The notes beneath the pieces were generated by a model that saw only the letters and a program-made list of their open reading frames with translations, searched no databases and was not told the origin of the DNA. A stretch of 64,000 nucleotides of DNA from positions 11,193 through 75,192 of the forward strand of contig CADAIP010000006.1 in assembly GCA_902787975.1 (NCBI GenBank), read 5' to 3'. This document shows positions 41,594 through 57,124 of the stretch, piece after piece (positions within the stretch are counted from its first letter, which is position 1; every line of letters starts with the position of its first letter). Position numbers and translations under genes: made by a program. The stretch is from Oscillospiraceae bacterium (GTDB lineage Bacteria > Bacillota > Clostridia > Saccharofermentanales > Saccharofermentanaceae).

Positions 41594-42778
41594 ATGATTT
41601 ATGCTGACAACGCGGCAACCACTCCAATGAGTGAAGCTGCAATCAACACAATGACAACTCTTATCAGAGAAACTTACGGAAATCCTTCAAGCCTTTACGA
41701 GTTCGGCCAGAAGGCAAAGGAAGTATTGGAGCAGGCAAGAGAAGATACTGCTGCGCTTATCGGTGCTGATGCCAAGGAAATAATATTCACATCAGGCGGA
41801 AGCGAAGCTGACAACCAGGCGATCATATCAGCTGCAAAGGCAGGCGCGCTCAAGGGCAAGAAGCACATCATCTCAAGCAAGTTCGAACACCATGCTGTTC
41901 TTCACACATTGAAAAAGCTCGAGAATGAAGGATTCGAAGTTACACTACTTGATGTTCACGAGAACGGTATCATCGATCCTTCTGAAGTAGAAGCAGCCAT
42001 CCGTGAAGATACCTGCCTGGTAACGATCATGTACGCAAATAATGAGATCGGTACAATTCAGGACATTAAAGGTATCGGTGCAGTCTGCAGAGCTAAGGGC
42101 GTTATCTTCCACACAGATGCAGTTCAGGCAATAGGACACCTTAAGATCAATGTAGTTGAAGAGAATATCGACATGCTCTCAGCATCCGCACACAAGTTCC
42201 ACGGACCTAAGGGCGTAGGATTCCTTTATGCAAGAAAAGGCATAAGGCTTGCAAATCTTATCGAAGGCGGCGCTCAGGAGAAGGGCAAGAGAGCTGGTAC
42301 GGAGAATGTTCCGGGAATCGCTGCGATGGTTACTGCTCTTAAGGAAGAAGTTGCAAATATCGATAAGAACACAGCGCACATCCTTCCTATCAGAAACAAA
42401 ATAATCGAAGGTCTTAAGGAGATCCCTCATTCAGCATTAAATGGCGATGAGGAAAGAAGACTTCCGAGCAACGTTAACTTTTGCTTCGAAGGTATCGAAG
42501 GCGAATCACTTTTGCTCTTACTTGACGATAAGGGTATCGCAGCATCTTCGGGAAGCGCATGCACATCAGGATCACTGGATCCTTCACACGTTCTTCTTGC
42601 GATCGGCAGAGTACACGATGTTGCACACGGTTCATTGAGACTCAGTCTCGGCGAAGATGTTACTGAGGAAGAAGCCGATTACATCATTAAGGCTGTTAAG
42701 GAAGTTGTTGAATACCTGAGAGGTTTTTCGCCGGTATGGAGAGATCTCGTAGCAGGAAAAACACAGTTTATTTTATAA
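41594..42778 (+). CDS. iscS: Cysteine desulfurase
   Basis: 'YADNAATT', 'FHTDAVQ', 'SAHKFHGPKG', 'SSGSACTSGS'. Confidence 0.95.
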   Translation: MIYADNAATTPMSEAAINTMTTLIRETYGNPSSLYEFGQKAKEVLEQAREDTAALIGADAKEIIFTSGGSEADNQAIISAAKAGALKGKKHIISSKFEHHAVLHTLKKLENEGFEVTLLDVHENGIIDPSEVEAAIREDTCLVTIMYANNEIGTIQDIKGIGAVCRAKGVIFHTDAVQAIGHLKINVVEENIDMLSASAHKFHGPKGVGFLYARKGIRLANLIEGGAQEKGKRAGTENVPGIAAMVTALKEEVANIDKNTAHILPIRNKIIEGLKEIPHSALNGDEERRLPSNVNFCFEGIEGESLLLLLDDKGIAASSGSACTSGSLDPSHVLLAIGRVHDVAHGSLRLSLGEDVTEEEADYIIKAVKEVVEYLRGFSPVWRDLVAGKTQFIL

Positions 42779-42790
42779 GGGGGCATCAAC

Positions 42791-43168
42791 ATGGCTTTAT
42801 ATAGTGAGAAAGTAATGGATCATTTCAGAAATCCGAGAAACGTAGGCGTTCTTGAAGACGCAAACGGTGTAGGCACAGTAGGTAACGCTAAGTGCGGGGA
42901 CATCATGAAGATGTATCTCAAGATCGAAGACGATATAGTCAAGGACGTTAAGTTCGAGACATTCGGATGCGGCAGCGCTATCGCATCAAGCTCAATGGCT
43001 ACAGAGCTCATCAAGGGCAAGCCTGTTGAAGAAGCAAGACAGCTTACAAACAAGGCTGTAGCAGAAGCTCTTGACGGACTTCCGGATTATAAGATGCACT
43101 GCTCAGTCCTTGCGCAGGAAGCTATTGAAGCTGCACTTAAGGACTACGAATCAAGACAGGAAGAATAA
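42791..43168 (+). CDS. iscU: Fe-S cluster scaffold (IscU/NifU N-terminal type)
   Basis: 'YSEKVMDHFRNPRNVG', 'CGD', 'FGCGSAIAS', 'KMHCS'. Confidence 0.95.
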   Translation: MALYSEKVMDHFRNPRNVGVLEDANGVGTVGNAKCGDIMKMYLKIEDDIVKDVKFETFGCGSAIASSSMATELIKGKPVEEARQLTNKAVAEALDGLPDYKMHCSVLAQEAIEAALKDYESRQEE

Positions 43169-43189
43169 AGAAAATTTCCAATTCAAGAA

Positions 43190-43224
43190 TAACCTATTGA
43201 CACAGTAGGTTTATGTGGCATAAT
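43190..43224 (+). promoter_or_regulatory. Rrf2-like sulfur box over a sigmaA promoter
   Basis: TAACCTA-TTGACACAG-TAGGTTT; TTGACA-N16-(TGn)CATAAT. Confidence 0.8.
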
Positions 43225-43259
43225 AAGTCCATGCCATAGAAAATCAAGGAGGCGTAAAA

Positions 43260-43358
43260 ATGTTTAGGATCATGTGTTGTCGAATGCATTATACAAGGGC
43301 TGAATCGGCCATGGCGTTTGACTGCACGAATATGCGCCTTGTCGATGTACGATGTTGA
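43260..43358 (+). CDS. Cys/Met-rich leader peptide 1 (32 aa)
   Basis: AAGGAGG RBS; MFRIMCCRMHYTRAESAMAFDCTNMRLVDVRC*. Confidence 0.8.
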   Translation: MFRIMCCRMHYTRAESAMAFDCTNMRLVDVRC

Positions 43359-43384
43359 CTTCAATATAAAACATCAAACTCCAC

Positions 43385-43419
43385 AGCCCGGGAAACTCGC
43401 TCATCCCGGGCTTTTTTAT
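43385..43419 (+). terminator. Attenuator terminator of leader 1
   Basis: AGCCCGGGA-N10-TCCCGGGCT-TTTTTAT, 28 nt before the mccB-like ATG. Confidence 0.85.
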
Positions 43420-43446
43420 GCAAATTACGAAAAGAGGTAAATAAAC

Positions 43447-44601
43447 ATGACTTACAAAAGAAATTCTTTACTTATTCACGGCGGTATCGATGGAGATGAG
43501 ACAACAGGAGCAGTAAATGTTCCCGTTTACCAGACATCAACATATAAGCAGGACGGCCTTGGCAAGAACAGAGGCTGGGAATATTCCAGAACCGGCAACC
43601 CGACAAGAGCAGCACTCGAGAAGCTGATCGCAGATCTTGAAGAAGGACAGTACGGTCTCGCATTTGCATCAGGTCTTGCAGCGATCAACACAGTGCTTTC
43701 TCTCTTCAAATCAGGTGACAAGCTCATCGTATCTGATAACATCTACGGCGGAACATTCCGTATTCTCGATAACGTTTTCAAGAACTTCAATATCACATAT
43801 AAGATCGTTGATACATCTGATCTTGAAGTAGTCGAAAATGCTATCGACGACGATGTAAAAGCAATCTACATCGAGACGCCTGCAAACCCTCTTCTTACCA
43901 TCACTGACATCGAAGCAGTATCAAAGATCGGAAAGAAGCATAACAAACTCGTTATCGTCGATAACACATTCCTCACACCTTATCTGCAGAGACCTTTGAC
44001 TCTTGGTGCTGACATCGTTATCCACAGCGGTACAAAATATCTTGGCGGACATTCAGATACGATCTCCGGATTTGTAGTAGTAAACGACAAGCAGCTTGCT
44101 GACAGACTTTACTATCTCCAGAATGCGATCGGCGGCGTACTCGCTCCCTGGGACAGCTTCCTTATCATCAGAGGAATCAAGACATTGGGTGTGCGTATGG
44201 ACAGACATGTGGCGAACGCAGGCAAGATTGCAAAGTGGCTTTCTGAGAGTGGCTACGTATCCAAGGTTTACTATCCCGGACTTGAATCAGATCCCGGCTA
44301 TGAGATCCAGAAGAAGCAGGCTGACGGAGCAGGCGCGATGATCTCATTTGTTCTTAACGACAAGTACGATTACAAGAAATTTTTCGAGCAGCTTCAGCTT
44401 ATAACGCTCGCAGAGAGTTTGGGCGGTGTTGAGTCACTCGTATGCCATCCCGCAACGATGACTCACGCAGCGATCCCTGCTGACATCAGAAAAGAAGTCG
44501 GCATCGTTGATGAGCTCATCAGACTTTCAGTAGGCATTGAGGACGTTGATGATCTTATCGAAGATCTGAAACAGGCAATCGAGAATTCAGTTAAAGCTTG
44601 A
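43447..44601 (+). CDS. mccB: Cystathionine gamma-lyase/synthase (MccB/MetB family)
   Basis: 'YSRTGNPTR', 'ETPANP', 'DNTF', 'HSGTKYLGGHSD', 'AESLGGVESL'; paired with an MccA-like gene. Confidence 0.8.
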   Translation: MTYKRNSLLIHGGIDGDETTGAVNVPVYQTSTYKQDGLGKNRGWEYSRTGNPTRAALEKLIADLEEGQYGLAFASGLAAINTVLSLFKSGDKLIVSDNIYGGTFRILDNVFKNFNITYKIVDTSDLEVVENAIDDDVKAIYIETPANPLLTITDIEAVSKIGKKHNKLVIVDNTFLTPYLQRPLTLGADIVIHSGTKYLGGHSDTISGFVVVNDKQLADRLYYLQNAIGGVLAPWDSFLIIRGIKTLGVRMDRHVANAGKIAKWLSESGYVSKVYYPGLESDPGYEIQKKQADGAGAMISFVLNDKYDYKKFFEQLQLITLAESLGGVESLVCHPATMTHAAIPADIRKEVGIVDELIRLSVGIEDVDDLIEDLKQAIENSVKA

Positions 44602-44609
44602 GGTGAAAT

Positions 44610-45524
44610 ATGAATAACGTATATGACAATATCAGAGAAATGATCGGCAAAACTCCGATCATCAAGATCAATCACATGGGCGTCAAGCCCGGTGTAAATA
44701 TCTATGCAAAACTCGAATTGATGAATCCCGCAGGAAGCGTTAAAGACCGTGTAGGCGTTTACATGATCGATGATGCAAAGAAGAGAGGTCTTCTCAAAGA
44801 AGGCGGAACGATCATTGATGCTACCGCAGGAAACACAGGTATCGGAATCGCGGTTGCCGCGCTTAACCAGGGATACAGGGTAATCTTCACGGTGCCTGAG
44901 AAATTCTCTGTTGAGAAGCAGATTGTAATGAAGGCTTTGGGCGCAGAGATAGTCCACACGTCAAGAGAAGGCGGAATGTTAGGCGCGGAAGAAAAAGCAG
45001 AAGAGATGCTTAAGACGATTCCGGATTCCATTTCATTAAGACAGTTCAGAAACCCCGCAAATCCTCTGGCTCATTATGAGACAACAGGTCCTGAGATCTA
45101 TTCACAGCTTGACGGCAAGATTGATTATTTTGTTGCAGGCGCAGGAAGCGGAGGAACATTCTCGGGAGTGGTTAAGTATCTGAAAGAGCAGAACCCCGGT
45201 GTCGTAGGTGTTCTTGCAGATCCTTACGGATCAACGATCGGCGGCGGTGAGCATTTCGATTACAACATCGAAGGAATAGGCAACGATTTCATCGCTGACA
45301 CGATGGATATCACATTGGTGGATAAGGTCATAAAGATCAACGATGACGAGGCATTTGCAGCTTCAAGAAATCTCGCAAAGCATGAAGGCATCCTTGCAGG
45401 ATCTTCATCCGGTGCGGCACTTGCTGCGGCACTCAAGCTTGCGGAAGAAATCGATGAAGGAAACATAGTAACGGTTTTCCCTGACAGAGGAGACAGATAT
45501 TTAAGCAAAGGATTATATGACTGA
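44610..45524 (+). CDS. Cysteine synthase family protein (MccA/CysK-like; probable OAS-dependent cystathionine beta-synthase)
   Basis: 'NPAGSVKDR', 'ATAGNTGIG', 'GAGSGGT', 'IEGIG', 'GSSSGA'. Confidence 0.85.
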   Translation: MNNVYDNIREMIGKTPIIKINHMGVKPGVNIYAKLELMNPAGSVKDRVGVYMIDDAKKRGLLKEGGTIIDATAGNTGIGIAVAALNQGYRVIFTVPEKFSVEKQIVMKALGAEIVHTSREGGMLGAEEKAEEMLKTIPDSISLRQFRNPANPLAHYETTGPEIYSQLDGKIDYFVAGAGSGGTFSGVVKYLKEQNPGVVGVLADPYGSTIGGGEHFDYNIEGIGNDFIADTMDITLVDKVIKINDDEAFAASRNLAKHEGILAGSSSGAALAAALKLAEEIDEGNIVTVFPDRGDRYLSKGLYD

Positions 45525-46531
45525 TGGAAACGGTATATGAATTAAAAAACGTATCCAAGATATATAAGAACGACGGTAAAGAATTCACGGCGTTAAAAGA
45601 CGTAAGCCTTACGATAAACGAAGGAGAGATCTTCGGCATCATTGGAATGAGCGGCGCGGGCAAATCAACACTTGTACGTACGCTTAACAGACTTGAGGAA
45701 GTATCTTCAGGTTCGGTCGAGTTCTATGGAAAAGATCTTGCAACACTTAAGCCGGCGGAACTTCGCTCTGTGCGTCACAGCATCTCAATGATCTTCCAGG
45801 GATTTAACCTCGTTAACCAGCGCACCGTTATCCAGAACGTTGAACAGTCCATGAAGATAATCGGCCTTTCCCGTGCCGTCCGCCGCGAAAAGGCAAAGCA
45901 GATGCTTGAAGTCGTAGGTCTTCTTGAGAAGGCAAATGAATATCCCGCGCGTCTTTCGGGCGGCCAGAAGCAGAGAGTTGCAATAGCAAGAGCACTTGCC
46001 GTAGACCCGAAGGTGCTTTTGTGCGACGAGGCAACGAGCGCACTTGACCCGAAGATCACAAACGAGATACTGGATCTTTTGAAGAAGATCAACGAAGAAA
46101 GAAAACTTACGATAGTCATCATCACTCACGAGATGAGCGTGGTCGAGAAGATCTGCGACCGCGTTGCGATCATTGACAATGGTACGCTTGCTGAAGTCGG
46201 AGAGGTAAAAGAGGTATTCTCAAATCCCCAGTCGAAAGCAGCGAAAAAACTGGTCTTCCCGAGCAATCCTTTTGATCCGTCTGACGAGAGCGGACAGATC
46301 GTAAGGATCGTTTTCGACGGTACGCAGTCGAATGTTCCGTTCATTGCAAATCTCGTCGAAGAAACAGGTCTTAAAGTAAATATCTTAAGTGCAAATACAA
46401 GAAGTGTCGGCGGTATCGGCTACGGCCAGATGATCATCGAGCTTCCTGAGTTGGCAGAAGACCGCCAGACGGTCATCGACTTCTTCAAAAAAGGCGGACT
46501 GTCTGTATCGGAGGTGAACAGAAATGAGTGA
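45524..46531 (+). CDS. metN: Methionine ABC transporter ATP-binding protein
   Basis: [16 protein letters not shown], 'CDEATSALDP', C-terminal NIL domain 'VNILSAN'. Confidence 0.92.
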   Translation: METVYELKNVSKIYKNDGKEFTALKDVSLTINEGEIFGIIGMSGAGKSTLVRTLNRLEEVSSGSVEFYGKDLATLKPAELRSVRHSISMIFQGFNLVNQRTVIQNVEQSMKIIGLSRAVRREKAKQMLEVVGLLEKANEYPARLSGGQKQRVAIARALAVDPKVLLCDEATSALDPKITNEILDLLKKINEERKLTIVIITHEMSVVEKICDRVAIIDNGTLAEVGEVKEVFSNPQSKAAKKLVFPSNPFDPSDESGQIVRIVFDGTQSNVPFIANLVEETGLKVNILSANTRSVGGIGYGQMIIELPELAEDRQTVIDFFKKGGLSVSEVNRNE

Positions 46532-47177
46532 TTATATTAGAGATGCGATCATAACGGGTGTCTGGGAGACGTTTGTAATGACGTTCTTCGCTTCGCTTTT
46601 TTCATATGCGGTCGGAATGCCTTTGGGAGTCCTGCTCTATGCGACTTCAAAAGGACGCCTGCTCGAGAACAGGCCTGTTAACTTTATTATCGGAGCCATC
46701 GTAAACATCACGCGTTCATTGCCGTTCCTGATCCTGCTCGTGCTCCTCATCCCGTTTACGAGATTTATCGTAGGCCAGTCCATCGGTACCACGGCTGCGA
46801 TCGTACCTCTAACGATAGGCGCTATCCCGATCGTTGCGAGAATGGTCGAGTCCTCGCTTAATGAGGTGCAGCCCGGCATTATCGAAGCGGCAACTTCCAT
46901 GGGCGCATCGCCTTTATATACGATAATTCACTTTATTATTCCTGAAGCAACACCTTCACTTCTTCAGGGCGGTGCGATCAATGTGGCAACCGTATTGGGA
47001 TACTCTGCCATGGCAGGTGTTATCGGAGGCGGCGGACTTGGTGCGATCGCCCTGCAGTACGGCTACTACCGCTACCAGAAAGACGTTCTCTTTACGACCG
47101 TTACATTGCTGATAATCATGGTAATGCTTATTCAGGAGATCGGTATCTTCATATCCAAGAAGAACAGGAAGACATAA
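46524..47177 (+). CDS. metI: Methionine ABC transporter permease
   Basis: 'RSLPFLILLVLLIPFTRFIVG.SIG', 'YSAMAGVIGGGGLG'. Confidence 0.92.
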   Translation: MSDYIRDAIITGVWETFVMTFFASLFSYAVGMPLGVLLYATSKGRLLENRPVNFIIGAIVNITRSLPFLILLVLLIPFTRFIVGQSIGTTAAIVPLTIGAIPIVARMVESSLNEVQPGIIEAATSMGASPLYTIIHFIIPEATPSLLQGGAINVATVLGYSAMAGVIGGGGLGAIALQYGYYRYQKDVLFTTVTLLIIMVMLIQEIGIFISKKNRKT

Positions 47178-47282
47178 AAGGAACCGTAAACATAAGAAGG
47201 TAATATAATTCATTTTTGCACCTCCAAAATGCTATAATTTTTCTATCTGAACGATAGTCTGATTATTGCCGGGAGGTGCTAA

Positions 47283-48407
47283 ATGGATAAATCAAAAGTG
47301 TATTTTACTGATTTTCGTACGGGTCTTGGTACGCCTCTTACTGCCAAGCTTCAAAAGCTCATAAAGCTTGCGGGAATCCAGTCTATCGATATGGACAACA
47401 AGTTTGTTGCCATAAAAATGCATTTCGGCGAACTCGGAAATCTCGCTTATTTAAGGCCCAATTATGCCAAGGCTGTTGCCGATGTCGTTAAAGAATTGGG
47501 CGGTATGCCTTTCCTTACCGACTGCAACACGCTTTATCCCGGAAGCCGTAAGCATGCGCTCGAGCACATGGACTGCGCAAACATCAACGGTTTTAACACG
47601 GTTACTACCGGATGCCAGATAATCATCGCTGACGGACTTAGAGGAACTGACGACATAATCGTTCCCGTTCCCAATGGTGAGTACTGCAAGGAAGCTTACA
47701 TCGGCCGTGCCGTAATGGATGCCGATATCTTTATCTCCCTTACGCATTTCAAAGGACATGAACAGGCCGGATTCGGCGGCTGTATAAAGAACATCGGCAT
47801 GGGATGCGGTTCCCGTGCGGGTAAGATGCAGCAGCACCAGAGCGGTCATCCGCATGTCATTACGGAGCGCTGCAGAGGATGCAAGCGGTGTTCCAAGGAA
47901 TGCGGTTCCGATGCGTTCATCTACGAGAATGGCAAAGCAAGGATAGATCCCGCTAAGTGCAAAGGCTGCGGCCGCTGCATCGGAGCATGCTCTTTCGATG
48001 CGATCGAAAACGATAACTGGGATGCAGCATCGATGCTCGGTAGAAAGATGGCAGAATATACTGCTGCGGTTATCAGCGGCAGACCAAGTTTCCACATCAG
48101 CCTCATCACTGACGTATCACCGAACTGTGACTGTCACGGAGAAAACGATGCACCCATCCTTCCAGACATCGGTATGCTCGCTTCTTTTGATCCTGTCGCT
48201 CTTGACCAGGCATGCGTTGATCTTTGCCAGAAGGCTGAGCCTGTAAGCAACAGCCAGCTCGGAGACAATATGAGAAGCGCACACTTCCACGACCATGGGG
48301 ATGTATGGCATAACAGCAATCCTAATGTCTCATGGGCAGAAACACTTGAGCATGGAGAGAAGATCGGAATAGGAACTCGTGATTACGAGCTCGTGATCAT
48401 GAAGTAA
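47283..48407 (+). CDS. DUF362 domain Fe-S protein with two [4Fe-4S] motifs
   Basis: 'KMHFGE', 'TDCNTLY', 'CRGCKRC', 'CKGCGRCIGAC', 'SPNCDC'. Confidence 0.85.
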   Translation: MDKSKVYFTDFRTGLGTPLTAKLQKLIKLAGIQSIDMDNKFVAIKMHFGELGNLAYLRPNYAKAVADVVKELGGMPFLTDCNTLYPGSRKHALEHMDCANINGFNTVTTGCQIIIADGLRGTDDIIVPVPNGEYCKEAYIGRAVMDADIFISLTHFKGHEQAGFGGCIKNIGMGCGSRAGKMQQHQSGHPHVITERCRGCKRCSKECGSDAFIYENGKARIDPAKCKGCGRCIGACSFDAIENDNWDAASMLGRKMAEYTAAVISGRPSFHISLITDVSPNCDCHGENDAPILPDIGMLASFDPVALDQACVDLCQKAEPVSNSQLGDNMRSAHFHDHGDVWHNSNPNVSWAETLEHGEKIGIGTRDYELVIMK

Positions 48408-53949: not shown

Positions 53950-54030
53950 ATGAAACGCATTACGGCCACTATGATCTGTATGTGCTGTACTGAAGTCGTC
54001 CTCCCGCATATGACCGGAGTGATCTGTTAA
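53950..54030 (+). CDS. Cys/Met-rich leader peptide 2 (26 aa)
   Basis: AAGGAGG RBS; MKRITATMICMCCTEVVLPHMTGVIC*. Confidence 0.78.
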   Translation: MKRITATMICMCCTEVVLPHMTGVIC

Positions 54031-54069
54031 ACGCATGATTAAGATCACAAACTGAATAAAGGTTACTGT

Positions 54070-54103
54070 ACGGGAGTTCTGATGAATTCCCGTTATTGTT
54101 TTT
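54070..54103 (+). terminator. Attenuator terminator of leader 2
   Basis: ACGGGAGTTC-tgat-GAATTCCCGT-TATTGTTTTT. Confidence 0.75.
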
Positions 54104-54698: not shown

Positions 54699-54756
54699 TA
54701 ACCCTGAAACCCCTAAAAACAAAGCGTTTTCGAAGACATCGAAAAATATTTTCAAT

Positions 54757-54792
54757 AAACCTATTGACACGGTAGGTTTGTAGTAGTAAAGT
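54757..54792 (+). promoter_or_regulatory. Rrf2-like sulfur box (perfect arms) over a sigmaA promoter
   Basis: AAACCTA-TTGACACGG-TAGGTTT; TTGACA-N17-TAAAGT. Confidence 0.82.
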
Positions 54793-54823
54793 ATCGCCAT
54801 CACAACGAAAGGAGGAGTGAGAA

Positions 54824-54946
54824 ATGTATAGAACAGATAACAGAACAACAGTCATGATGTGTTGTCGAATGTTCAGCTCCCGGGTGCGCAATATGGCACA
54901 GGGCGCAGGATACAATTCCTCACGCCTTGAGATAGATCGATGTTAA
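54824..54946 (+). CDS. Cys/Met-rich leader peptide 3 (40 aa)
   Basis: AAAGGAGG RBS; MYRTDNRTTVMMCCRMFSSRVRNMAQGAGYNSSRLEIDRC*. Confidence 0.8.
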   Translation: MYRTDNRTTVMMCCRMFSSRVRNMAQGAGYNSSRLEIDRC

Positions 54947-54975
54947 AGCAGTAACTTGCATTTGAAGATATGCCA

Positions 54976-55012
54976 TGCGCCCGGGAGATAAATCTGACCC
55001 GGGCATTTTTAT
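54976..55012 (+). terminator. Attenuator terminator of leader 3
   Basis: GCCCGGG-N12-CCCGGGC-ATTTTTAT. Confidence 0.78.
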
Positions 55013-55072
55013 GCCAAAACAAAATCAATCTTAAAGCGAAAGAAAAAACACAAACTAAGGAGAACACACAAA

Positions 55073-55939
55073 ATGAAGAACATATTTAAGAAGGCAATCG
55101 CCGCAGGACTTTTACTCGCAATCACAGGCTCATTTGCAGCTTGCTCACAGGCTAAAGCAACAACAGTTAACGCAGGAACAGTAGGAAGTGACACACAGGT
55201 AACAGAGAATGTCGTTCTCACGGTAGGCGCAAACATCACACCTCACGCAGAGATCTTGGAAGTTGCAAAGCCGATCCTCGCAGAGCAGGGAATCACACTC
55301 GAGATCGTAAGACTCGAAGATTCCGTTACACCTAACACAGGCGTTATCGAAGGCTCACTTGACGCAAACTATTTCCAGCACGTTCCTTACCTCGAACAGT
55401 TCAATAAAGAAAACGGTTCAGATCTTGTTTCAGTTGGCGCAGTCCACTATGAACCCTTCGGCATCTATGCAGGCAGAGTAAAAGATCTTAAGGACCTCCA
55501 GGATGGCGCAGTGATCGCAGTTCCCAACAACGTAACAAACGAAGCAAGAGCACTTCTCCTCCTCGCACAGGAAGGCATCATCAAGCTCAAGGACGATGCA
55601 GGAATCAATGCAACAGTAGAAGACATCGTAGAGAATCCTCTTAACATCCAGTTCAAGGAACTCGCACCTGAGCAGCTCGTTGCAGCACTTCCTGACGTAG
55701 ATGTAGCAGTCATTAACGGTAACTACGCAATCGAGGGCGGTCTGCACGTAAGCGAGGCACTCGCAGTAGAGGCTAACGACGGTCTTGCAGCACAGACATA
55801 CGGAAACATCATTGCAACATCACCTGATAAGGCAAACGATCCTGCAGTTAAGGCTCTTGTTGAAGTTCTTCAGGGACCTGAAGTTGCAAAGTTCATCGAA
55901 GATACATATGACGGTGCAGTAGTACCTCTCTTCGGTTAA
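55073..55939 (+). CDS. metQ: Methionine ABC transporter substrate-binding lipoprotein (MetQ/NlpA)
   Basis: Lipobox 'FAAC'; 'TPHAEILE', 'DANYFQHVPYL', 'HYEPFGIY', 'VPNNVTNEARALLLL'. Confidence 0.92.
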   Translation: MKNIFKKAIAAGLLLAITGSFAACSQAKATTVNAGTVGSDTQVTENVVLTVGANITPHAEILEVAKPILAEQGITLEIVRLEDSVTPNTGVIEGSLDANYFQHVPYLEQFNKENGSDLVSVGAVHYEPFGIYAGRVKDLKDLQDGAVIAVPNNVTNEARALLLLAQEGIIKLKDDAGINATVEDIVENPLNIQFKELAPEQLVAALPDVDVAVINGNYAIEGGLHVSEALAVEANDGLAAQTYGNIIATSPDKANDPAVKALVEVLQGPEVAKFIEDTYDGAVVPLFG

Positions 55940-55963: not shown

Positions 55964-57124
55964 ATGATCGGATTTGAGTATTACAACCCCGCGAAAATAG
56001 TTTTCGGCGAGGACAGCGAAAAGAAATTGAAGTCTCTTTTATCGCAACATAAAGTCAGTTCACTCCTATTGGTATACAGCGGAGACTTCATCAAAACACT
56101 GGGCATTTACGACGTCATTACTGACGCAGTAAAGGAACTCGGGATCAAGTTCTCGGAGAGCGGTGAAGTAGTACCAAATCCGTCCATCGAGCTTGTCAGA
56201 AAACTTGTCGCAAAGGGCAAGGAAGATAAAGTTGACTTCGTTCTCGCAGTCGGCGGTGGCAGCTCCATCGACACTGCAAAGGCGATAGCTCTCGGTATAC
56301 CGTACGATGGCGATGTCTGGGATTTCTTCGACAAGGGTGTTACTCCCGAGCAGGTCCTTGGTATCGGAGTAATCGCAACAACGGCATCGAGCGGTTCCGA
56401 GACGTCCAACTGCGCGATCCTCTCATACGGTGAGTGGAAGAAGGGTTTTGAAGATGACCGCATCATCCCCAAGTTCGCGATCATGAACCCCAAGTACACA
56501 GTAAACCTTCCTTCATATCAGACTTTCGTCGGAATCGCAGATGTGTTGTCACACCTTCTCGAAAGATATTTCTCTGATGAGAAATATTCCGATACGACAG
56601 ACTACCTTATCGAAGGTGCCGTAAGAGCATTGCTCGTAAATGCAGACAGACTTATCGAAGACCCTACGAACATCAACGCAAGAGCAGAGATACAGTGGCT
56701 CGCATCAGTAGCACACAATAATTTCCTTGATGCCGGAAGATCGGCAGACTGGGGATCACACCGTATCGAGCACGAACTCTCTGCACAATACAACATCACA
56801 CACGGAGAAGGAATGGCGATCGTTTTCACGGCTTGGACTAAGTACATTGCTGACATCAAGCCCTGGAGACTTGCACTCCTCGCAAGCAGAGTCTACGGAA
56901 AAGATCCGTACGACTATTCAGAGAAAGAACGCGCGCTTCTTTTATCAGACGAACTCGAGAAGTTCTTTAAGAAACTTGGGATCAAGACTCATCTTTCCGA
57001 ACTCGGAATCGGTGACAAGGATTTCGAAGTAATGGCACAGCGTGCAACAAAGGGCGGCAACGTCGGACACTATGTTCCGCTCGATTCACAGAAGATAGTA
57101 GAGATCTTAAAGATCGCACTATAA
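55964..57124 (+). CDS. Iron-containing alcohol dehydrogenase (BdhA/YqhD-like)
   Basis: 'FEYYNPAKIVFG', 'GGGSSIDTAK', 'DVLSHLLERY', 'HRIEHELSA', 'HGEG'. Confidence 0.9.
   Translation: MIGFEYYNPAKIVFGEDSEKKLKSLLSQHKVSSLLLVYSGDFIKTLGIYDVITDAVKELGIKFSESGEVVPNPSIELVRKLVAKGKEDKVDFVLAVGGGSSIDTAKAIALGIPYDGDVWDFFDKGVTPEQVLGIGVIATTASSGSETSNCAILSYGEWKKGFEDDRIIPKFAIMNPKYTVNLPSYQTFVGIADVLSHLLERYFSDEKYSDTTDYLIEGAVRALLVNADRLIEDPTNINARAEIQWLASVAHNNFLDAGRSADWGSHRIEHELSAQYNITHGEGMAIVFTAWTKYIADIKPWRLALLASRVYGKDPYDYSEKERALLLSDELEKFFKKLGIKTHLSELGIGDKDFEVMAQRATKGGNVGHYVPLDSQKIVEILKIAL

Follow-up and report, generated by a model that had tools for sequence, protein, structure and literature searches.

A putative ribosome-mediated attenuator with cysteine and methionine codons upstream of metQ in rumen and gut Clostridia

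Introduction

Classical transcription attenuators of the Proteobacteria (trp, his, leu, thr, ilv and pheA) consist of a short open reading frame (ORF) that is led by a Shine-Dalgarno (SD) sequence and rich in codons for the amino acids under control, an intrinsic terminator ahead of the first structural gene, and an antiterminator that shares a strand with the terminator. To our knowledge, no classical attenuator for cysteine or methionine is known in the Proteobacteria. Here we describe a leader of this general plan, leader 3, upstream of metQ in a stretch of 64,000 nucleotides (nt) of Oscillospiraceae bacterium DNA (assembly GCA_902787975.1, contig CADAIP010000006.1, positions 11,193 to 75,192), called the window below. 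All coordinates are positions in this window and all listed parts lie on the plus strand. Leader 3 has each of the parts named above. As in the classical systems, the regulatory codons are found about 14 nt upstream of the antiterminator 5' strand and a less-preferred synonymous codon is used, here TGT; the E. coli leu leader uses rare CUA codons. Unlike the classical systems, the leader 3 family would sense Cys together with Met, and it is found in Clostridia. Its ORF runs about 64 nt past the antiterminator 5' strand, through the interior of the domain, and the competitor of the antiterminator lies downstream and not upstream of that strand. An invariant rare CGA codon stands next to the sulfur-amino-acid codons, and there is neither sequence similarity to the classical leaders nor an Rfam match.

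Bacillota mostly rely on T-boxes and riboswitches to sense amino-acid supply, and attenuation by leader peptides is considered rare among them. Genes of the metNIQ and mccAB type are usually controlled by S-box (SAM-I) riboswitches and Cys/Met T-boxes. These elements regulate the same kinds of genes as the leaders described here and have the same read-out, a terminator or an antiterminator in the 5' leader. However, their sensor is the direct binding of S-adenosylmethionine (SAM) or uncharged tRNA, and Rfam detected none of them in the window or in 20 related loci. In a survey of leader peptides, the first example beyond Proteobacteria and Actinobacteria, and the only one reported, was a His leader in bacilli (PMC2965389). 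Our literature search, with most subscription journals outside its coverage, found no description of a leader with Cys/Met codons at metQ or mccB of Clostridia.

Upstream of cysS in Rhodobacterales, the upstream ORF (uORF) uORFC-8-2 has tandem Cys codons at positions 14-15 and a terminator, and was read as a case of ribosome-mediated attenuation (PMC8632094). The leader 3 family shares with it a tandem Cys pair at the same codon position (family median) and a terminator after the uORF; a similar limit on how long the N-terminal spacer can be may lie behind the shared position. The two differ in phylum and in gene, UGC is dominant there and UGU here, and the Cys codons of uORFC-8-2 lie inside the first stem. 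Moreover, uORFC-8-2 has no Met enrichment, CGA or C-terminal Cys, and no detectable sequence relationship to the leader 3 family. Leaderless polycysteine short ORFs that act on translation were described in mycobacteria (bioRxiv 10.1101/834739), and Cys leaders without terminators in Actinobacteria (PMC1262725). There, as proposed here, stalling at Cys codons of a short upstream ORF switches on operons of Cys metabolism, and one sensor serves several operons (a 'ribulon'); three such leaders are present in our window. Those ORFs are leaderless, carry longer Cys runs near the stop codon and unmask a downstream ribosome-binding site without an intrinsic terminator, whereas the leaders described here have a strong SD, Cys codons in runs of only two or three and a switch between terminator and antiterminator.

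Results

Leader 3 occupies the gap between an energy-coupling factor (ECF) S-component gene and metQ (54740-55075). The comparisons and predicted folds presented below make it likely that this element acts as a ribosome-mediated transcription attenuator, which would report the supply of charged tRNA-Cys and tRNA-Met. The product of its ORF is MYRTDNRTTVMMCCRMFSSRVRNMAQGAGYNSSRLEIDRC, followed by a stop. The first-pass annotation of this DNA had proposed that CTCCCGGGTGCGCA at 54877-54890 can pair with TGCGCCCGGGAG at 54976-54987. These coordinates are exact, and the minimum free energy (MFE) fold of leader 3 contains the helix. This fold is the antiterminator: CUCCCGGGUGC pairs with GCGCCCGGGAG through 11 contiguous pairs, one of them G-U, and CTCCCGGGTGC (54877-54887) is thereby joined to the left arm of the terminator that precedes metQ. 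Its energy is -67.6 kcal/mol (z = -3.4), and none of 200 shuffled sequences folded as well; the terminator itself has -16.2 kcal/mol. The antiterminator is extended by AUGGCA (54893-54898) with UGCCAU (54971-54976), and the domain encloses the internal helices CAGGGCG (54899-54905) with CGCCUUG (54923-54929) and AGGA with UCCU. Leader 3 had also been said to have the strongest antiterminator, which agrees with our folds, as leaders 1 and 2 show none at equilibrium.

Homologues were collected in two ways. A genome scan based on MetQ, and blind to the leader, covered 80 loci of rumen and gut Clostridia (Saccharofermentans, Ruminococcaceae, Lachnospiraceae, Butyrivibrio and Eubacterium metagenome-assembled genomes (MAGs); closest MetQ identity 90-92%), about 28 of which have the same kind of leader upstream of metQ. 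A metagenome scan with the pattern TGTCGAATG-N5-CTCCCGGG gave 120 further loci. The family totals 123 distinct leader peptides with a mean length of 39 amino acids and the consensus M-x(~11)-M-M-C-C-R-M-L-N-S-R-A-x-x-M-A-G-A-...-R-L-...-R-C-stop. The first downstream gene is most often a mccB-like pyridoxal-phosphate enzyme of Cys/Met metabolism (44) or metQ (39); the others are a polar-amino-acid (cystine-type) ABC permease or binding protein, an NMT1-type binding protein, a GST-like protein and an ECF S-component. The genes of the family are a sulfur-amino-acid regulon.

That the ORF is translated, as suggested from the single sequence, was borne out by the homologues, where its frame is locked across all 123. 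The SD-ATG upstream of the Cys codons was in frame in 126 cases and in another frame in 9, and every family member has a strong SD. No in-frame stop was found within the leader ORF in any of the 123, compared with 3-5% stop codons in the other frames. The hexamer CGATGT recurs within the ORF, and although its distance from the sensor block ranges from 36 to 78 nt, 56 of its 58 occurrences are in frame and 42 directly precede a stop. Since its frame is kept across insertions and deletions, it is not an RNA-only motif; for the same reason, and because a stop usually follows, CGAUGUUGA, which we had considered as a pure RNA motif or as an RNA polymerase pause site similar to the his pause, is taken to be read as codons. 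In the variable C-terminal part, Cys makes up 10.4% of the codons in frame, versus 4.6% and 4.4% in the other two frames.

These features argue against an RNA-only switch with an incidental ORF, be it a riboswitch or an RNA to which a protein or tRNA binds. Such a switch would fit the very high nucleotide conservation of the conserved blocks, the covariation in a multi-helix domain and the fact that the two states are nearly iso-energetic across the family. It does not account for a start, CGA-TGT and stop that stay frame-locked despite insertions and deletions, for the SD in every member or for Cys enrichment specific to the reading frame, and no T-box or S-box signature was seen. Rfam 15 gave 0 matches at the gathering score across the window and, in 54700-55100, chance-level matches only (E > 6, up to 10). 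A SAM riboswitch, a T-box and other known Rfam families were therefore rejected for leader 3, and we consider an RNA-only switch very improbable.

Next to the frame, the choice of codons carries the argument. A leader has on average 4.0 Cys and 4.6 Met. Both residues are about ten-fold enriched at positions that vary between members (Cys about 10% of both variable parts, Met 6-13%), and this enrichment at shifting positions indicates that codon identity is selected rather than a single RNA sequence. The first 10-12 residues are not conserved in sequence, but the number of codons before the second Cys (Cys2) is held at 12-16. The tandem Cys codons are at median codons 14-15 in the family and at 13-14 in leader 3 (54860-54865). 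The residue before Cys2 is Cys in 103/123 leaders, the one before that is Met or Cys in 99/123, and Cys or Met prevails at positions -1 to -3. In the 27 leaders of our genome-locus alignment A2, which are chiefly metQ-anchored, the sensor block is nearly invariant. TGT outnumbers TGC at the first Cys (84:19) and in the tail (142:73), while the genes of the window show the reverse preference (TGC 157, TGT 87).

The choice of Arg codons is also biased. CGA makes up 4.7% of the Arg codons in window genes, and Arg in the unconstrained N-terminal part of the leaders is encoded by AGA in 67/116, as in the genome. After Cys-Cys, however, Arg is CGA in 26 of the 27 A2 leaders, and the exception, CAA in L007, changes the residue. 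Before the terminal Cys it is CGA, as CGA-TGT, in 42/42. In the variable tail, 56 of 76 CGA codons directly precede a Cys codon and 26% of the Cys codons have CGA before them; AGA, AGG, CGT and CGG show no link to a following Cys codon. These codon-pair statistics strengthen the earlier and plausible suggestion that CGA may be a built-in pause. The first-pass annotation had further noted a 15-nt block and an RL-x-x-x-RC tail before the stop in both leader 1 (32 amino acids) and leader 3 (40 amino acids), and had taken this as selection on the peptide or its codons. The block is exact, ATGTGTTGTCGAATG in both. Selection at the codon level is supported by the TGT and CGA choices, but the shared 'RL' reflects mostly an RNA helix and not selection on the peptide.

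The invariant CGA could also be seen as a programmed codon-pair device that parks the ribosome at two defined places, a reading that we hold only tentatively and think rather doubtful. A CGA in the P site would slow the next codon, AUG in the sensor block or UGU before the stop, and the ribosome would then rest on the antiterminator strand or, at the end of the ORF, on the internal helix. The ribosome of the on state, waiting for Cys-tRNA, and that of the off state, waiting at CGA, would be 3-6 nt apart. CGA is presumably read by inosine-adenosine wobble, and the peptide M-C-C-R-M may contribute alongside such a device. From duplex energies we also judged whether AUGUGUUGUCGAAUG owes its conservation to pairing with the 5' region or with sequence behind the stop codon, and rejected both partners, as the energies match those of shuffled sequences (z = +0.3 and -0.1, respectively). 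For the segment that follows the antiterminator strand the signal was only weak (z = -0.7), and it pointed to a hairpin in a subgroup, described below.

The structural part of the switch shows covariation. In 85 aligned leaders the helix that closes the antiterminator is 94% paired, with 15 and 16 compensatory double changes at two inner pairs. The AUGGC:GCCAU helix is about 76% paired in the family, also with compensatory changes, and for the whole structure all five covariation measures exceed all 500 shuffles and all slid controls. Projected on the family, the internal helices P2 and P3 of leader 3 reached only 43-53% pairing, their register differing between lineages, and P3 is therefore not put forward as conserved. 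A script search for a hairpin with a U-run found the terminator in 109/123 leaders. It always uses the CCCGGGAG strand, its left arm is always the antiterminator 3' strand, and its right arm co-varies (e.g. GGGAGUC/GACUCCC in L034). The overlap of the helix with the left arm, together with the compensatory changes, upholds the idea that antiterminator and terminator compete. The apparent peptide conservation of S-R-A, M-A-G-A and 'RL' arises because these residues are encoded by the helix strands CUCCCGGGCA, AUGGCCGGGGCG and CGCCUU.

Homologues that keep the RNA pairing without the Cys and Arg codons would have pointed to a pure RNA element. Among genome loci selected by pairing alone (CTCCCGG ... 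CCCGGGAG ... T-run) we found none: all 29 genuine ones keep a Cys codon and CGA-ATG (CAA-ATG in L007), 28 of them with the core block and one with the variant Y-C-I-R-M. The remaining matches were reverse-strand images or chance.

A local hairpin is a candidate anti-antiterminator (the '1:2' helix of classical attenuators) that could compete for the same strand. In leader 3 (54870-54912) the antiterminator 5' strand can pair with the G-rich segment 54896-54906 (-17.6 kcal/mol). In a large subgroup this hairpin is extended by GUCGAAUGC with GCGUUCGRC, reaching -24 to -34 kcal/mol. For the extended form, GUCGAAUGC..CCCGG with CYGGG-GCG-UUCGRC, 75% of the cells are paired versus at most 46% in slid controls; the invariant 5' side precludes covariation. 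This 5' strand consists of the Cys2-Arg-Met codons, which a stalled ribosome would cover, like 'region 1' of the classical attenuators.

We then related the position of the ribosome to the fold by partition functions in which pairing was forbidden within an assumed ribosome footprint (-18 to +12 of the A site). With the A site at codons 1-14 of leader 3, the antiterminator had p = 1.0, and at codon 15 (CGA) p = 0.74. At codons 16-27 the terminator took over with p of about 0.9, and at the last Cys codon or the stop codon its p was 0.8-0.9. Over 116 leaders, the mean antiterminator probability was 0.63 up to Cys2, fell to 0.34 at CGA and did not exceed 0.05 from the second codon after Cys2 onward. 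Because the boundary falls right after Cys2, Cys2 is the last waiting position that leaves the antiterminator strand free. The 14-nt spacing from Cys2 to this strand is constant in all metQ-anchored homologues, which form the unbiased set.

These folds are consistent with the following mechanism. When Cys (or Met) is scarce, the first ribosome would stall with Met11/12 or Cys13/14 in the A site and its front edge about one base short of CUCCCGGG. The free CUCCCGGG could pair with the terminator left arm as soon as this is made, and RNA polymerase would read into metQ. When both amino acids are plentiful, the ribosome would advance and cover CUCCCGGG for about 12 codons, so that the terminator would form; the rare and slowly decoded CGA at the entry would probably hold the ribosome over CUCCCGGG. 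Behind the passing ribosome, the local hairpin of CUCCCGGG and the following G-rich segment could re-form and again permit the terminator. Finally, the internal helix could release the antiterminator strand, but a ribosome parked at CGA-UGU-stop would cover the 3' strand of this helix, which would also lead to the terminator.

Several points weigh against this attenuator model. The stop codon follows the antiterminator 5' strand at a median distance of 64 nt, and of 67 nt in leader 3; therefore the textbook blocking of 'region 2' by a ribosome at the stop codon is inapplicable and the layout is a variant one. Free leader 3 RNA prefers the antiterminator at equilibrium, therefore termination must be kinetic or imposed by the ribosome. 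The terminator-promoting effect of a ribosome at the stop codon is clear in leader 3 and modest family-wide (0.53 versus 0.39 for free RNA; 116 leaders). By prediction, a ribosome that stalls at the conserved Met16 or the terminal Cys would promote termination, contrary to what a simple starvation sensor should do. The nucleotide invariance of UGU-CGA-AUG is stricter than codon sensing needs, and a pairing partner exists only in the subgroup. The metagenome pattern fixes TGTCGAATG and CTCCCGGG, whose conservation can be judged only from the approximately 28 metQ-anchored loci. Overall, the case consists of sequence comparison and equilibrium folding with an assumed footprint.

The same folds bear on a metabolite-dependent arrest by the nascent peptide (TnaC/SpeFL-like), where M-C-C-R-M-(L)-x-S-R-A in the exit tunnel would sense free Cys, Met or SAM and the ribosome would stall on top of CUCCCGGG, so that abundant ligand leads to termination. 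A ribosome one to twelve codons past Cys2 indeed gives termination in the masking model, which is the right regulatory sign, and the free RNA defaults to the antiterminator. In addition, Cys-Cys is followed by an invariant R and M, which in most members have no explanation in RNA pairing. Still, the conservation is at the nucleotide level: CGA is never swapped for any of the five synonymous Arg codons, and its sole change, to CAA in L007, alters the residue. Helices account for S-R-A, M-A-G-A and S-R-L, the first 10-12 residues are not conserved, and extra Cys and Met codons at variable positions are unexpected for an arrest motif. We consider arrest quite improbable as the main principle. The invariant synonymous sites of the conserved block point to an RNA or codon constraint and leave room for an added peptide role.

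The promoter may add another layer. The -35 hexamer of leader 3 is enclosed by a palindrome that has the form CCTA-N9-TAGG around TTGACA in 84/121 family members and that we take to fit a T-N11-A (LysR-type) box. It is probably a binding site for a transcription factor and suggests a second, protein-based control at the promoter. Could this be the main control, by a regulator bound to CCTA-N9-TAGG, with a leader that merely sets a constant basal level or mRNA stability or encodes a functional small Cys-rich peptide? The palindrome is present in both window copies as well as in most of the family, and leaders 1 and 2 lack an equilibrium antiterminator, as would be expected. However, a constant terminator leaves the conserved, co-varying and overlapping antiterminator unexplained, as well as the exact placement of the Cys codons. 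The peptide is unconserved outside the RNA-constrained blocks and has no relatives in the protein collection, and some members combine a different promoter motif with the same leader. Control mainly at the promoter is unlikely in our view, and we retain the ribosome-mediated attenuator as the preferred explanation.

As for that different motif, a palindrome-less minority (L094, L104, L108, L113, L127, L140 and L147) has GATAA-N6-TTATC followed by AACGA(T/A)TTT(T/A)CAAA, about 100 nt upstream of the leader ORF. The leader of these members is unchanged, while the promoter/operator is different.

The features of the locus are collected in Table 1.

Table 1. Features of the leader 3 locus and of the other two leaders in the window
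Feature	Position	Strand	Remarks
Inverted repeat AACCTA-N9-TAGGTT	54758-54778	+	encloses -35 TTGACA of leader 3
Promoter -35 TTGACA	54764-54769	+	consensus scan; sigma-70-type, 17-nt spacer
Promoter -10 TAAAGT	54787-54792	+	consensus scan
Shine-Dalgarno GAAAGGAGG	54807-54815	+	AGGAGG core 54810-54815, 9 nt before ATG
Leader 3 ORF, 40 codons	54824-54946	+	ATG 54824, stop TAA 54944-54946
Sensor block Met11-Met12-Cys13-Cys14-Arg15(CGA)-Met16	54854-54871	+	ATG ATG TGT TGT CGA ATG
Antiterminator 5' strand CUCCCGGGUGC	54877-54887	+	starts 14 nt after first base of second Cys codon
Antiterminator domain interior	54893-54929	+	predicted folds
Terminal codons CGA-TGT-TAA (Arg39-Cys40-stop)	54938-54946	+	end of leader 3 ORF
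Antiterminator 3' strand GCGCCCGGGAG	54977-54987	+	overlaps terminator left arm
Intrinsic terminator	54979-55012	+	GCCCGGG 54979-54985, loop, CCCGGGC 54998-55004, then A UUUUU AU
metQ (NlpA lipoprotein; methionine ABC substrate-binding protein family)	55073-55939	+	Pfam PF03180, E = 1.5e-84; next come an Fe-ADH gene (55964-57124) and a 184-aa ORF
Leader 1 element	43191-43420	+	same promoter palindrome as leader 3; ORF 43260-43358; terminator 43386-43411
Leader 2, more distant	53950-54093	+	ORF 53950-54030, MKRITATMICMCCTEVVLPHMTGVIC and stop; terminator 54070-54093; precedes ECF S-component gene

We infer a transcript start near 54798-54801 for leader 3, a leader of about 210 nt. Contigs from bovine rumen metatranscriptomes have 5' ends at 54806-54841, close to this start. 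One RNA contig (54816-55833) crosses the terminator into metQ, i.e. leader and metQ are co-transcribed, although contig depth is no measure of attenuation. Extra contig depth at 54827-54948 in one run was considered as a trace of attenuated transcripts and rejected, as it comes partly from contigs of a related strain with variants at 54933-54934.

The SD region itself (54807-54818, GGAGG followed by GCG or AGUGAG) is complementary to CGCCUU(G) late in the ORF (54921-54929), and leader 1 has a counterpart (43248-43257 with 43341-43351). Since this pairing appears in some predicted folds, the leader could sequester its own ribosome-binding site after the first round of translation.

The 15-mer ATGTGTTGTCGAATG has exactly two copies in the window, at 54857-54871 in leader 3 and at 43272-43286 in leader 1; by an arithmetic estimate, the chance expectation of a second exact copy in 128 kb is about 1e-4. 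The peptide of leader 1 is MFRIMCCRMHYTRAESAMAFDCTNMRLVDVRC, 32 amino acids before the stop. Both peptides end in RL-x3-RC-stop, with CGA-TGT directly before the stop codon, and the two leaders also have in common the 22-nt promoter palindrome AACCTATTGACACRGTAGGTTT (AACCTA-N9-TAGGTT around the -35 TTGACA, 54758-54779 and 43191-43212), the SD, CGCCTTG, CGATGTTRA and the terminator arms. For the palindrome pattern and for the terminator-arm pattern, 0 matches are expected by chance. Leader 1 is followed by mccB-like, cysK-like, metN and metI genes. In the same ribosome-masking scan the terminator won throughout in leaders 1 and 2, neither of which has an equilibrium antiterminator, and for this reason these two leaders cannot be used to support the mechanism.

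The neighbourhood of leader 1 (41594-48407) contains sulfur and Fe-S genes: a NifS-like cysteine desulfurase gene (41594-42778) and a NifU-like gene (42791-43168) upstream, both named only from their sequences, and a DUF362 4Fe-4S protein gene (47283-48407) after the mccB-like to metI genes. The ECF S-component gene after leader 2 encodes a PF07155 protein, and the closest relative has the same leader 2 (L002:1767). Because leader 2 precedes this gene, the predicted substrate of the ECF S-component is a sulfur compound.

Variants of the leader were also seen. In the close relatives L063 (2750-2869) and L109, a C to T change turns the terminal CGA into TGA, and the leader stops two codons early; these leaders end in ...RLEND before the stop, with the downstream TGTTAA kept. 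More distant Clostridia and an Erysipelotrichaceae MAG have other SD-led short ORFs rich in Met and Cys about 2 kb upstream of metQ, most with a T-run after them (L019:1008, L048:975, L064:864, L069:1129, L075:669, L077:738 and L080:852), for example MTQITTMQMNIAMMCGMMMDMCRMFAYSKNRI and MKSSVTNKNDVMDMCSMAMCMMNCTFFDMLFVHNRHHL. No Rfam family was detected in 20 related loci without the leader 3 type of leader, L019 and L069 included. Leaders with sulfur-amino-acid codons may be general in these lineages. A search of the protein collection with the 40-residue leader 3 peptide gave no match and no candidate with three common 5-residue words, i.e. the peptide is called as a gene nowhere in it.

Discussion

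Leader 3 and its homologues apparently represent a large, undescribed attenuator family, in which an old principle is used in a variant layout and in a taxonomically unexpected place. Should the codon-pair reading of the invariant CGA be true, it would be a regulatory use of CGA stalling in bacteria, where a slow codon takes over the role that the stop codon has in the classical attenuators.

If the attenuator model is true, the three leaders of the window would be explained as one regulon read by the ribosome. The family also provides a simple sequence signature by which these operons can be annotated and small ORFs that lack an annotation detected, and a strongly conserved natural test case for codon effects on ribosome pausing in bacteria, namely the preference for UGU over UGC and the CGA beside sulfur-amino-acid codons. 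For the organisms themselves, it would mean that this family is the main controller of Met and Cys uptake and interconversion in many abundant Clostridia of the rumen and gut.

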